DNA of 64,000 bases from Vulcanimicrobiota bacterium. Its GTDB lineage: Bacteria; Vulcanimicrobiota; Vulcanimicrobiia; Vulcanimicrobiales; Vulcanimicrobiaceae. Under the pieces are notes generated by a model. That model had not been told where the DNA came from. It saw only the letters and a program-made list of their open reading frames with translations, and ran no database searches. Numbering within the stretch: the stretch's first letter is position 1; each line of letters opens with the position of its first letter. Both the position numbers and the translations under genes were made by a program. Below are positions 1 to 49,954 of this stretch, piece by piece. Where the stretch lies: NCBI GenBank assembly GCA_963820825.1, contig CAWGBN010000002.1:32001-96000 (forward strand), in the 5' to 3' direction.

Positions 1-262
1 CCGAACGGCCGGCGTTGGTGCTGACGACAGTCGCGCGCGCGCGAACAGCCTCCCCGCTCAAACCCTCGTTCACCGGCTGCGGACGATCGGGGGCCGAGCC
101 GGCGTGCGCGACGAGCGAGATCTCCTCGTCGCCGACGTCGTAAATACCAACCCAACGGTACGTACGCGCGCTGCGGATGATCTCGGCGCTCGCGCGAGCG
201 CGCTGCTCGCGCGGCGATTCGGTGTCGGCCGCACGCGCGAGGCTGCGCACGGTTTCGTTCAT
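1..262 (-). CDS. GAF-domain protein, 3' end outside window
   Basis: Manual translation MNETVRSLARAAD...IIRSARTYRWVGIYDVGDEEISLVAHAG...GLSGEAVRARATVV; WVGIY and GLSGEA are GAF-like; ATGA overlap with purM stop. Confidence 0.7.
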   Translation of the reverse strand, partial: MNETVRSLARAADTESPREQRARASAEIIRSARTYRWVGIYDVGDEEISLVAHAGSAPDRPQPVNEGLSGEAVRARATVVSTNAGRS

Positions 263-26861: not shown

Positions 26862-27158
26862 TCAGACCCCGGCCGGTACCTTCGACGAATAGCACGACCG
26901 GCAGTAGACGGGCCGGTCGCCGCGCGGACGGAACGGGACCGTCGTCTCCACGCCGCAGGCCGCGCAGACCGCACCGTAGCTCGGACGGCTCTGCGCGCTC
27001 GCGCTCCTCTCCCCGCCCTGGGCCCTCCGAGCCTGGCGGCACTCGCGACAGCGCAGCGGCTGGTTCGCGAAGCCCTTCTCGGCGAAGAACACCTGCTCTC
27101 GCTCGGTGAAGATGAACTCGTTCCCGCAGTCCTTACAGCTAAGAATCTTATCTTCCAA
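26862..27158 (-). CDS. Zinc-ribbon protein with CxxC-x17-CxxC domain
   Basis: CKDCG..F.FT..EQ.FF..KGF...P.RC..CR plus CAACG...VPF.P...RPVYC..CY. Confidence 0.9.
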   Translation of the reverse strand: MEDKILSCKDCGNEFIFTEREQVFFAEKGFANQPLRCRECRQARRAQGGERSASAQSRPSYGAVCAACGVETTVPFRPRGDRPVYCRSCYSSKVPAGV

Positions 27159-27208: not shown

Positions 27209-27703
27209 TTAGTTCCTGCGGGCCCCTGCACGGGTGACGGACGCGGCGGCGCTCAGTAGCGCAGCGGCGGCAAGAGCGGCTCCGTAGCCCTTGTCGCCGC
27301 CCTGCGGCGAGGCACGCTCCGTCGCCTGCGCGAGCGTCTCGGTCGTCAAGACGCCGAACCCGATCGGGGTCCCCGTCGCGAGCTGAACGTCCATAATCCC
27401 TCTGGCGCACTCGCCGGCGACGTACTCGAAGTGGGGCGTCTCGCCTCGCACGACAACCCCCAGCGCGACGACCGCGTCGAAGCGATCCGAGGCGATGAGA
27501 TTGCGGCACGCCAGCGGGAGTTCGAAGCAGCCCGGCACCTCGAAGAGCGCGACGTCGTCGTCGCCGACGTTGCAGTCGCGCAACGCGCGTTTGGCGCCAT
27601 CGACCAGCATATCGGCCAAGTCGCCGTAGAATCGCGCGGCGACGATCGCGAAACGCCGGCCCGCGCAGTCGGGCGCCGGCAGCACTCCGCCGCCGCCCTT
27701 CAC
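27209..27703 (-). CDS. ribH: 6,7-dimethyl-8-ribityllumazine synthase
   Basis: ARFY, VPGCFELP, RGETPHFEY, FGVLTT, QATERA, DKG. Confidence 0.95.
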   Translation of the reverse strand: MKGGGGVLPAPDCAGRRFAIVAARFYGDLADMLVDGAKRALRDCNVGDDDVALFEVPGCFELPLACRNLIASDRFDAVVALGVVVRGETPHFEYVAGECARGIMDVQLATGTPIGFGVLTTETLAQATERASPQGGDKGYGAALAAAALLSAAASVTRAGARRN

Positions 27704-29109
27704 GATGCCGCGACTTCGTCGATCATATGACCGAGCTTCGAGCGCTTGGTGTCGATGTAGTGTTTGTTATGCGCCGTCGGCGTCGTCTGCAATGGGACGC
27801 GGCCGACGATGCGCAGACCGTATCCCTCCAGCCCGAAGATCTTCTTCGGATTGTTGGTAATGAGCCGCATTTCGCGCACGCCGAGATCGGCGAGGATCTG
27901 CGAGCCGATGCCGTAGTCGCGTTTATCGATCGGAAGTCCCAACGCAATATTCGCCTCGACCGTATCGGCGCCGCGGTCTTGCAGCTCGTAGGCGCGCAGC
28001 TTATCGGCCAGGCCGATGCCGCGCCCTTCCTGGCGCAGATAGAGTAAGACGCCGCGCCCCTCGCGAGCGATCATCTCCATCGCGCCGTCGCGCTGGGCGG
28101 CGCAGTCGCAGCGTACGGAGTGCAGAGCATCGCCGGTCATGCATTCGGAGTGAACGCGAACGAGCAGCTCCTTGCCGCTGCCGATCTCGCCCATGACCAG
28201 TGCGACGTGCGTGTTCTCGTCGATCGTGGTGGTGTAGGCTACGCCCCTCCACTTGCCGATCGTCGTCGGCAGATCGAATTCCGCGATCCGCTCGACCAGC
28301 TTCTCCGTGCGCATCCGGTACGCAATCAGGTCCTTAACGGTGATCAGCTTGAGTGAATGCCGATCGGCGTAGCTGCGCAAACCCTCGAGGCGTTCCATCG
28401 TGCCGTCGTCGGCCATGATCTCGCAGATGACGCCGGCGGGATAGAGGCCCGCCAGTCGCGCTAAGTCGACCGCCGCCTCGGTCTGCCCGGCGCGCACAAG
28501 CACGCCGCCGTCGCGCGCGCGCAGCGGAAACGTATGTCCGGGGCGCAGGAAATCGGCCGCGCGCGCTTCGGGATCGAGCAGTTTGGTAATCGTCGCGGCG
28601 CGGTCGTGCGCCGAGATGCCGGTCGTCGTGATGTCGCGCGCCTCAACCGAAACGGTGAAGGCTGTTTCGTGGAGGGCGGTGTTGTCGCGAACCATCGGCG
28701 GGATGTGGAGATCGTCTAGCCGCGCGCCGACCATCGGCACGCAAATCAACCCGCCCGCGTGTTTGCGCATGAAGTTGATCGCTTCGGGCGTGACCATCTG
28801 CGCCGCCATGACGAGGTCGCCTTCGTTCTCACGATCCTCGTCGTCGAGCACCACGACCATCTTCCCGGCACGAACATCGGCGATCGCCTCCGCGATCGAA
28901 TCGAAGGGCCCGTCCTCCTCGGTCAGCTGCTCGCCGAGCGAGGGAAAGAGCTGGGTCAGCCGCTGCAGCGTGCGATAGGACGGCTCCCGCCGCCCGGCGC
29001 GCAGCAGAGAGATCGCGGATTCGGTGAGGCCGGCGGTCTCGGCCACCTCGGCGGCACTGAGACCGGCCGCATTCATCGCCTCGTTCAGCAGATCGGCAAA
29101 AGCACTCAC
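27700..29109 (-). CDS. ribBA: XRE-HTH fused to bifunctional DHBP synthase/GTP cyclohydrolase II
   Basis: N-terminal 58-aa HTH (GLSAAEVAETAGLTESAISLLRAGRREPS), then DDEDRENEGD, RPGHTFPL, RVHSEC, RCDC, RQEGRGIG in one frame. Confidence 0.94.
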   Translation of the reverse strand: MSAFADLLNEAMNAAGLSAAEVAETAGLTESAISLLRAGRREPSYRTLQRLTQLFPSLGEQLTEEDGPFDSIAEAIADVRAGKMVVVLDDEDRENEGDLVMAAQMVTPEAINFMRKHAGGLICVPMVGARLDDLHIPPMVRDNTALHETAFTVSVEARDITTTGISAHDRAATITKLLDPEARAADFLRPGHTFPLRARDGGVLVRAGQTEAAVDLARLAGLYPAGVICEIMADDGTMERLEGLRSYADRHSLKLITVKDLIAYRMRTEKLVERIAEFDLPTTIGKWRGVAYTTTIDENTHVALVMGEIGSGKELLVRVHSECMTGDALHSVRCDCAAQRDGAMEMIAREGRGVLLYLRQEGRGIGLADKLRAYELQDRGADTVEANIALGLPIDKRDYGIGSQILADLGVREMRLITNNPKKIFGLEGYGLRIVGRVPLQTTPTAHNKHYIDTKRSKLGHMIDEVAAS

Positions 29110-29115
29110 CCATCC

Positions 29116-29145
29116 AGCCTAGGGGCTACTTTACAAATGTCAAGT
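29116..29145 (-). promoter_or_regulatory. sigma70-like promoter with overlapping palindromic operator for HTH-ribBA
   Basis: TTGACA (29143-29138), 16 bp, TAGGCT (29121-29116); palindrome ACTTTACA-AA-TGTCAAGT at 29128-29145. Confidence 0.6.
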
Positions 29146-29164
29146 CGCGGAGCCCGGGAACACG

Positions 29165-29841
29165 CTAGCGCGAATATGCGGAATCAACTCCGACCGCTTG
29201 CGGCCCGTGAACGACCATCGCCTTGACGCGGCTCTTGCCGCGTCCGTTGCGCTCGGCCATGCCGAACACCAACGTCTTGCCTTCGGTCGGCCCGTGCTTC
29301 ATCTTGCGGAACCCGAGGCCCGTGGTCATCGTGGCCTTGCGGCGACCGCCGACGAAGGTTTCGTCCGCTTCGATCTCTCCGTCGAACATACGGTCATCGG
29401 TCGGAGCCATCGCCTCGCGGATGCGATGCAGCATGAACCAAGCCGTCTTTTGCGTGTACGCCAAGGGCGCGGCCTAGCTCATGCGAGGACGTTCCGTTCT
29501 TCGTGTTGGCGAGGAACCAAACGGCGGGGAGCCACTTGCTCAGCGGAAGCGGGCTGTCCTCAAAGATCGAGTTGACCTTGACCGAGAACTGCCGCTTGCA
29601 GTCCTTGCAGCGCCAAATCTTGCGGTCTTGATAAACTGGACGCTAGCCGACCCGCAGCCCAAGCGCGGGCAAGCCACGCCGTGCGGCCACCGGATTTTGA
29701 TCGCGTAGGCGTGAGCTCGGTCGGGGTCCGCAAAGTAGGTGACGGCTTCGAGCAGGGTGGTCGGCGTCGTTTCCATGCACCAAGCGTATACTCGCCGAGT
29801 GCCAACTGGGTGGCATTTGGTGCGTCAGCTATATCATTCCC
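29165..29841 (-). mobile_element. Truncated IS1595-family element (frameshifted transposase, one end visible)
   Basis: Zn-ribbon RWPHGVACPRLGC, CKDCKRQFSV, QKTAWFMLHRIREAM, EADETFVGG; probable left end GGGAATGATATAGCTGACGCACC at 29841-29819; C-terminal half absent. Confidence 0.85.
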
Positions 29842-29937
29842 ACAAATGTCAAGCCACCGAACGCGCAGGGCTGGTACAGGTTCGATGACCCAGCGCACTA
29901 AAATTAGCCGTCGTTCCCCCAAGAAAGTTTGGGCACC

Positions 29938-49800: not shown

Positions 49801-49876
49801 TCCCGGGTAGTTCAGCTGGAAGAACGGCGGCCTCTGAAGCCGCATGTCGGTGGTTCGAGCCCATCCCCGGGAGCCA
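49801..49876 (+). tRNA. tRNA-Gln(CTG)
   Basis: Acceptor TCCCGGG/CCCGGGA, anticodon arm GCGGC-ctCTGaa-GCCGC, GGTTCGAGCCC, encoded CCA. Confidence 0.96.
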
Positions 49877-49878
49877 GC

Positions 49879-49954
49879 GGCCCCATCATCTAGAGGCCTA
49901 GGATGCCGCCCTCTCACGGCGGTAACGCGGGTTCGAATCCCGCTGGGGCTACCA
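49879..49954 (+). tRNA. tRNA-Glu(CTC)
   Basis: GGCCCCA...TGGGGCT, anticodon arm CCGCC-ctCTCac-GGCGG, GGTTCGAATCC, encoded CCA. Confidence 0.96.

Follow-up and report, generated by a model that had tools for sequence, protein, structure and literature searches.

Why should RibBA, an enzyme of riboflavin synthesis, carry a helix-turn-helix (HTH) domain of the XRE type at its N terminus? This question is raised by a gene on the minus strand of the window, i.e., the whole stretch of 64,000 nucleotides of Vulcanimicrobiota DNA that was analysed. The sequence comparisons presented here suggest that the fusion protein, HTH-RibBA, is probably an autogenous repressor-enzyme of the ribBA-ribH transcript.

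A preliminary description of this DNA, made from the sequence alone, had reported an XRE-type HTH in frame with a complete RibBA, and this was borne out by profile searches. HTH_3 (PF01381) matched residues 10-55 with 30.4 bits against a cut-off of 23, DHBP_synthase matched residues 74-264 and GTP_cyclohydro2 residues 273-439 (all Pfam), and the RibBA equivalog PRK09311 reached 621.9 bits against a cut-off of 569 (NCBIfam). TIGR00506 and TIGR00505 both exceeded their cut-offs, and both enzyme domains are complete. The AlphaFold model of the source protein (mean pLDDT 83) comprises a helical head, an ill-defined linker and two enzyme folds; by analogy with the family, the helix formed by residues 30-37 is the predicted recognition helix. 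We considered the possibility that the head was an annotation artefact and that translation started internally. This was rejected, as the source gene has no in-frame ATG, GTG or TTG in codons 56-73; an in-frame start codon in codons 58-72 was present in 14 of the 45 genus sequences.

The fusion is the sole RibBA that we found in the source genome (G000, 85% complete), and it is likely co-transcribed with ribH (Table 1). About 6 kb upstream of ribBA lie ribD-ribE, behind a gene that we read from its sequence as ComF-like. The nearest Atlas cluster is largely Vulcanimicrobiota, a close homologue of the HTH carries the name Candidatus Eremiobacteraeota, and the fusion proteins present in public databases are labelled plain RibBA. 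Here and in many relatives, ribH is followed by the gene of a small double zinc-finger protein (zf_Tbcl, zf_Tbcl_2; 26862..27158, minus strand), which has four paralogous matches elsewhere in the source genome; an IF-2B-family (MtnA-like) gene comes next. Two adjacent tRNA genes (49801..49951, plus strand) were the only Rfam matches in the window.

Table 1. Features of the hth-ribBA locus in the window, and the consensus of the candidate operator
Feature	Position	Strand	Remarks
hth-ribBA fusion gene	27700..29109	-	GTG start, 469 aa, no internal stop
XRE/HTH_3 domain	28939..29109	-	aa 1-57; from Pfam, model, alignment and dN/dS
Predicted helices of the HTH	aa 2-15, 19-26, 30-37, 45-54		
Variable linker	28906..28938	-	aa 58-68
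RibB (DHBP synthase) domain	28315..28905	-	Gln209 where the GHTE histidine is usual
RibA (GTP cyclohydrolase II) domain	27721..28293	-	C323, C334 and C336 invariant in 50 aligned sequences
ribH (lumazine synthase)	27209..27703	-	start overlaps the ribBA stop (GTGA)
Predicted -10, TAGGCT	29116..29121	-	16-nt spacer after the -35; 6 nt before the GTG
Predicted -35, TTGACA	29138..29143	-	from sequence
Candidate operator, ACTTGACA-TT-TGTAAAGT	29128..29145	-	18 bp; coding-strand reading; left arm is the -35
Candidate operator, family consensus			C-TTGACA-NN-TGTHAA-G
Broken IS1595 element	29165..29841	-	zinc-ribbon and DDE fragments; one recognisable end, 29818..29841
Second partial operator copy, CTTGACATTTGT	29842..29853	-	8-bp core ACATTTGT repeats 29133..29140

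The preliminary description had also placed a promoter, TTGACA-16-TAGGCT, immediately ahead of the GTG, and an 18-bp palindrome over its -35. The promoter can indeed be read in the sequence, though it is a weak consensus and was not called by a promoter scanner; the ribBA transcript would be leaderless. The palindrome is present too, but it pairs imperfectly, at 7 of its 8 arm positions, and stands at chance level when taken alone: when the 120 nt upstream were base-shuffled 300 times, 7/8 was reached in 49 cases. We therefore rejected any significance drawn from the single genome; the palindrome is significant because it is conserved across genomes.

This conservation was assessed at 84 HTH-bearing loci, that of the source genome included. 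In all 84, the best match to TTGACA-NN-TGTCAA lay 29-39 bp before the start codon, with 0, 1, 2 and 3 mismatches in 13, 57, 11 and 3 loci, respectively (81 within 2). Twelve of these loci came from genomes failing an exact operator pattern, while L024 (no upstream DNA), L061 of G058 (contig ending in the linker), L062 of G111 and same-genome duplicate loci were left out of the count. The left arm coincides with the -35, for which conservation is expected in any case, so that only the right arm, which falls in the promoter spacer, counts as independent evidence. Five of its six positions were 92-100% conserved, as compared with only 41-51% for spacer positions 17-22. A TANNNT hexamer followed at 16-18 nt in 68 of the 84 loci, always 6-9 nt ahead of the start codon, and the palindrome is kept in G221, G100, G229, G084 and G154 though off a well-placed -35. 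Within the source genome, the right arm accompanied 1 of 25 promoter-like TTGACW..TANNNT sites, and a matrix scan gave 29.0 bits for the ribBA site and 19.3 bits for the next match. The exact pattern TTGACANNTGTHAA occurred once per genome, at ribBA, in the source genome and in 28 of 29 fusion-bearing relatives, the pattern being present there with one base changed in the 29th; the reversed-pattern control gave 5 matches in 41 genomes.

Loci without the HTH gave the opposite picture, all 14 HTH-less ribBA loci examined having at least 4 mismatches to the operator. The clearest loss control is G111, in which the HTH is absent, TTGACA-17-TAGCCT is kept and the right arm is lost. Unrelated ribB loci, i.e., ordinary ribB loci from the scan for the Chloroflexota fusion described below, served as a negative control: 71 of 78 had at least 4 mismatches and none had fewer than 3. 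Most HTH-less ribBA genes are operon-internal, so that a promoter is not expected there. The genomes are related, and the HTH-less set represents few independent events. In a quick tree, G181, G168 and the second copy of G029 fall among HTH-bearing sequences, which forces at least three changes; G111 forms a long branch. The palindrome thus likely behaves as the candidate operator of the HTH and, since it is present with the HTH and missing without it, the enzyme likely shuts off its own gene.

No wider regulon emerged from the 19 of 20 second-site regions that were inspected (16 in this phylum and three alphaproteobacterial; the region of the unpublished G036 was skipped). As judged from ORF sequences, these sites lie in coding sequence, precede genes of ArsR or Fur-like type, or are unassigned. 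In this phylum, no recognisable riboflavin gene stood behind the second site in any of the 16 regions inspected. The alphaproteobacterial palindrome described below, searched for with one mismatch allowed, gave 14 matches, fewer than the 37 of its reversed control. No candidate operator was found at ribD-ribE in the source genome. ArsR-family genes, so labelled by resemblance, have TTGAC-N4-GTCAA upstream in G033, G037, G135 and G162, and an operator-like ATATTGAC-N4-GTCAAT, the core of which resembles that of the ribBA site, precedes ArsR-family genes at L070, L072, L295 and L296 and, in the source genome, at C6:671073.

The preliminary description had overlooked the broken IS1595 element directly upstream and, beyond it, the second partial operator copy, whose repeated core ACATTTGT is likely a target-site duplication. 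IS1595 inserts at the middle of the operator and duplicates 8 bp (ACA-NN-TGT), as seen in the source window (29133..29853) and at L086, L090, L093 and L037; in G217, G170 and G092, an element of 2.1-2.3 kb is flanked on either side by a copy of the 8-bp core. The promoter-side end of IS1595 reads ...TATATCATCTTG and rebuilds the -35 and the left arm. The right arm is native, so that the insertion does not account for it. An IS end abuts the operator in 17 of the 84 loci and transposase sequence occurs in the upstream DNA of 7. Judged by these sequences, the candidate operator is a target of IS1595, and the remnant in the source genome fits this pattern. The far IS end of the source genome and of G088 begins GGGAAT/GGGGAT instead, indicating either that there are two end types or that the near end was altered after insertion.

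The distribution of the fusion was then compared across genomes. Retention of the HTH in orthologues had been put forward as a check, together with conservation of the palindrome, which held in all 84 loci as described above. The HTH was likewise kept: the fusion was found in all 24 same-genus genomes and in all 5 genomes of the order's second family, in some of these genomes split over contigs. G029 has, beside the HTH-bearing gene, an additional HTH-less ribBA (L027, 864..2093), which stands directly behind another gene, the end of which we take to resemble a flavin oxidoreductase. The first 110 residues were also used as a query against 251 genomes drawn from the phylum, 160 of which belong to the family. 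Matches were obtained in 153 of these 160, in 148 at fusion-level E-values and in 5 at the RibB-only level. Among the 148, the 146 listed were stop-free from residue 1-4 to residue 107-110, i.e., over HTH and RibB; in G058, one of the five RibB-only matches, the contig ends within the linker. The 18 genomes of the class's other family, 10 of which were confirmed as HTH-less by reading their loci, gave RibB-level scores only, as did all matches in other classes. Among the genomes searched, the fusion therefore looks like a trait of one order and not of the whole phylum. These tallies include the unpublished genomes G036, G227, G247, G252, G260 and G262, and no claim hangs on any of them singly. 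In the 45 genus sequences, dN/dS amounted to 0.074 for residues 18-45, 0.074 for RibA, 0.056 for RibB and 0.42 for the linker. The recognition region of the HTH is thus under purifying selection as strong as that on the enzyme.

Distant HTH-RibB fusions were retrieved when 1.84 billion representatives were searched with a profile. An HTH-RibBX fusion of 425 residues is present in Aestuariivirga and related Hyphomicrobiales (L110-L189), among them a named strain, Aestuariivirga litoralis KCTC 52945, whose genome carries this parallel system. The palindrome TATTAGC-N3-GCTAATA was found within 2 mismatches in 75 of 80 alphaproteobacterial loci. It mostly starts 23-25 nt before the ATG, over the predicted -10, and is doubled or shifted upstream of the -35 in a few loci. 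Neither lineage has the motif of the other. The HSEC zinc motif of the cyclohydrolase is absent from all alphaproteobacterial HTH-RibBX loci. An internal Met is present in 72 of 78 of these genes, with a Shine-Dalgarno-like motif at 71 of the 72, so that they may also yield a head-free enzyme and give two products from one gene. In L180, a stop codon follows the HTH. A third fusion, of HTH_3 with a full RibBA, is represented by three proteins (P0176, P0406 and P0407), two of which are labelled Dehalococcoidia or Chloroflexota. The heads of the fusions are detectably related as XRE domains. From the differing heads, enzyme subtypes and phyla, we infer that the fusions apparently originated independently in the three lineages. 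In two of the profile matches (P0165 and P0203), the domain order is the reverse, RibA preceding RibB.

HTH-RibBA is assumed here to be enzymatically active. The acidic RENEGD loop of RibB, C123, H192, R206 and E230 are invariant in the aligned class sequences. A point against the reading proposed below is that residue 209 (28483..28485, minus strand) is Gln in place of the histidine of GHTE, the metal/substrate histidine of RibB, in at least 90% of 50 aligned class sequences; it is His in G025. However, HTH-less relatives share this Gln, as do 26 of the 72 unrelated ribB that were parsed. C323, C334 and C336 of the cyclohydrolase align with 4I14; we take the zinc cysteines to be the feature that separates RibBA from RibBX.

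In the mechanism that we propose, the conserved palindrome, which covers the predicted -35 of the gene itself, would be bound by the N-terminal XRE-type HTH, and the bound protein would repress the ribBA-ribH transcript. A protein lying across the -35 would block RNA polymerase, which makes autogenous repression the best reading. As a dimer, the enzyme body would bring two HTHs to the two half-sites. It likely supplies this dimer because RibB enzymes are homodimeric, with active sites at the subunit interface built from both subunits (according to PMC5228156). Such a dimer could couple DNA binding to the state of the enzyme, and binding may be tuned by the state of the RibB active site, through ribulose 5-phosphate, DHBP or metal.

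How much of the effector proposal stands? The preliminary description had suggested self-repression in response to GTP, ribulose 5-phosphate or flavin. Autogenous control is strongly supported by the comparative data, but the guess at an effector is not. If autogenous repression is granted, the chances that an effector tunes binding appear evenly balanced, and for ligand-tuned binding overall we put them just short of even. We somewhat favour the RibB active site over flavin as the origin of such tuning. RibB is the only catalytically plausible domain common to all three fusions. Flavin sensing is unsupported: no flavin-binding domain was found in the source HTH-RibBA, a review (PMC13151069) states that riboflavin does not act directly on the enzymes of its pathway, and, with no site at ribD-ribE in the source genome and none of the inspected second sites at a recognisable rib gene, no pathway-wide regulon indicates a flavin signal. 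GTP turnover as a shared signal is weakened by the alphaproteobacterial fusion, which is devoid of the cyclohydrolase zinc motif. Furthermore, the variable linker, for which the prediction is poor, gives no indication of tight allosteric coupling. It is conceivable, though somewhat less likely than not, that a small XRE/Cro head turned RibB at least three times into a metabolite-sensing transcription factor, with its own operator and a leaderless promoter in each lineage studied.

We considered the possibility that the HTH represses simply according to the level of the protein, the enzyme acting as a dimer scaffold and no metabolite being sensed. This sub-case of autogenous repression, which has perhaps a one-in-three chance of being right, accords with the single site and absent regulon, with the variable linker and with the reported lack of regulation of the enzymes by riboflavin (PMC13151069, in the part cited above). 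If dosage were all that mattered, the fusion would not be expected to stay in frame in nearly all genomes, despite the internal Met with its Shine-Dalgarno-like motif in the alphaproteobacterial genes, nor to arise on RibB in three lineages. Yet dependence on the dimer fits both observations equally well, so that pure dosage control keeps these odds.

Other readings would detach the palindrome from repression by HTH-RibBA. The palindrome might be bound by another factor, for example a CRP/FNR-type protein or an ArsR recognising a similar core, and the HTH might have another role; we take the ribBA palindrome to resemble an FNR box. The four ArsR-associated TTGAC-N4-GTCAA sites and the ArsR orthologue encoded in the source genome point in this direction. 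However, the best site upstream of this orthologue differs at 3 positions, the ribBA site is normally single-copy and lost together with the HTH, and a different palindrome is found where the HTH differs, which leaves this explanation improbable. It is slightly less probable still that HTH-RibBA binds but activates transcription, in the manner of the archaeal activator RbkR (PMC5397151), although XRE-like factors of Wolbachia also activate a ribA reporter (PMC3518464). Under this reading, one would have to explain why the -35 is itself part of the site here, and why the alphaproteobacterial palindrome overlaps a -10. Occupied core promoter elements usually block RNA polymerase. As a further reading, the palindrome might derive from IS1595 ends or be a quirk of the promoter, with the HTH as a passenger. 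This could be argued from the IS-end-like sequence abutting the left arm and the transposase found upstream, in the proportions given above, and from the insignificance of the palindrome in one genome. This explanation is largely refuted and very improbable: the 8-bp core alone is duplicated on insertion, the right arm on the promoter side is native and is conserved whether or not an IS is present, and the HTH is under strong purifying selection.

Autogenous repression by HTH-RibBA finds its closest described counterpart in archaeal RbkR, which links a winged HTH to a CTP-dependent riboflavin kinase (PMC5397151). The HTH is of another class, and a kinase is found there where the first pathway steps are found here. 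From what this source reports, RbkR is moreover an activator that is released by FMN and acts at several loci, including transporters, whereas HTH-RibBA has one site, over its own -35. Its domains (HTH_3, DHBP_synthase and GTP_cyclohydro2) do not form the RbkR architecture, a flavokinase-family gene lying on another contig, and one site per genome does not make an RbkR-like multi-locus regulon. Like the trigger enzymes BirA, NadR and PutA (listed in PMC5397151), HTH-RibBA combines an enzyme with a DNA-binding domain that would regulate its own pathway. A conserved cognate operator at a pathway gene, a trait of such enzymes, was found in 84 of 84 HTH-bearing loci versus 0 of 14 HTH-less ones. 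For BirA, NadR and PutA, ligand control is demonstrated. They are unrelated enzymes, whereas HTH-RibBA apparently arose three times on one enzyme family. By analogy, HTH-RibBA would thus work like RbkR, BirA and NadR and shows the testable features of a trigger enzyme, yet it belongs to none of these systems.

Both enzyme domains align with ordinary RibBA (M. tuberculosis RibA2, PDB 4I14; E-value 8e-143) and RibBX (A. baumannii, PDB 6MNZ), in agreement with the best Foldseek match; the source protein differs from them by the Gln that replaces the GHTE histidine. No solved chain was found to match HTH and enzyme together. In Wolbachia, the XRE-like proteins wBmxR1 and wBmxR2 bind the promoter of a bifunctional ribA (PMC3518464), as is proposed here for the HTH. 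Unlike HTH-RibBA, they are described in this source as unfused, stand-alone activators, which also act on type IV secretion genes.

The FMN riboswitch (RF00050), an RNA that senses FMN, controls rib genes in many bacteria, whereas HTH-RibBA is a protein. Reviews name it as the mechanism of bacterial riboflavin control, in the parts available to us (PMC13151069, PMC12542839), and whole groups carrying rib genes without it have long been noted (PMC545781). The window has no RF00050 match. The contrast with riboswitch control drawn in the preliminary description is softened by the result that none of 41 genomes had one, including G000 and 11 of the HTH-less family (the control matched in 7 of 14). 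No match was found either in 5 alphaproteobacterial fusion-bearing genomes. Since HTH-less genomes also lack the riboswitch, the fusion would have added control and not replaced it; the idea of a riboswitch replacement is unsupported.

These data provide a concrete candidate, HTH-RibBA, for control of the entry steps of riboflavin synthesis in some groups without an FMN riboswitch. No HTH-RibB(A) regulator is described in the parts of three reviews that were available (PMC13028884, PMC13151069, PMC12542839), and we found no description of the fusion in the open literature searched. A first enzyme of vitamin B2 synthesis bearing its own DNA-binding head would represent a protein-based control that we did not find described for bacteria. 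The protein, the candidate operator and natural loss controls are all defined. If the wider proposal is true, bacteria would possess a protein-based riboflavin control that reads the entry to the pathway (ribulose 5-phosphate, DHBP or the state of the RibB dimer) and not FMN. If binding is controlled by a ligand, RibB, which has been studied with a view to vitamin production and as a target for antibacterials, would have a new role in regulation.
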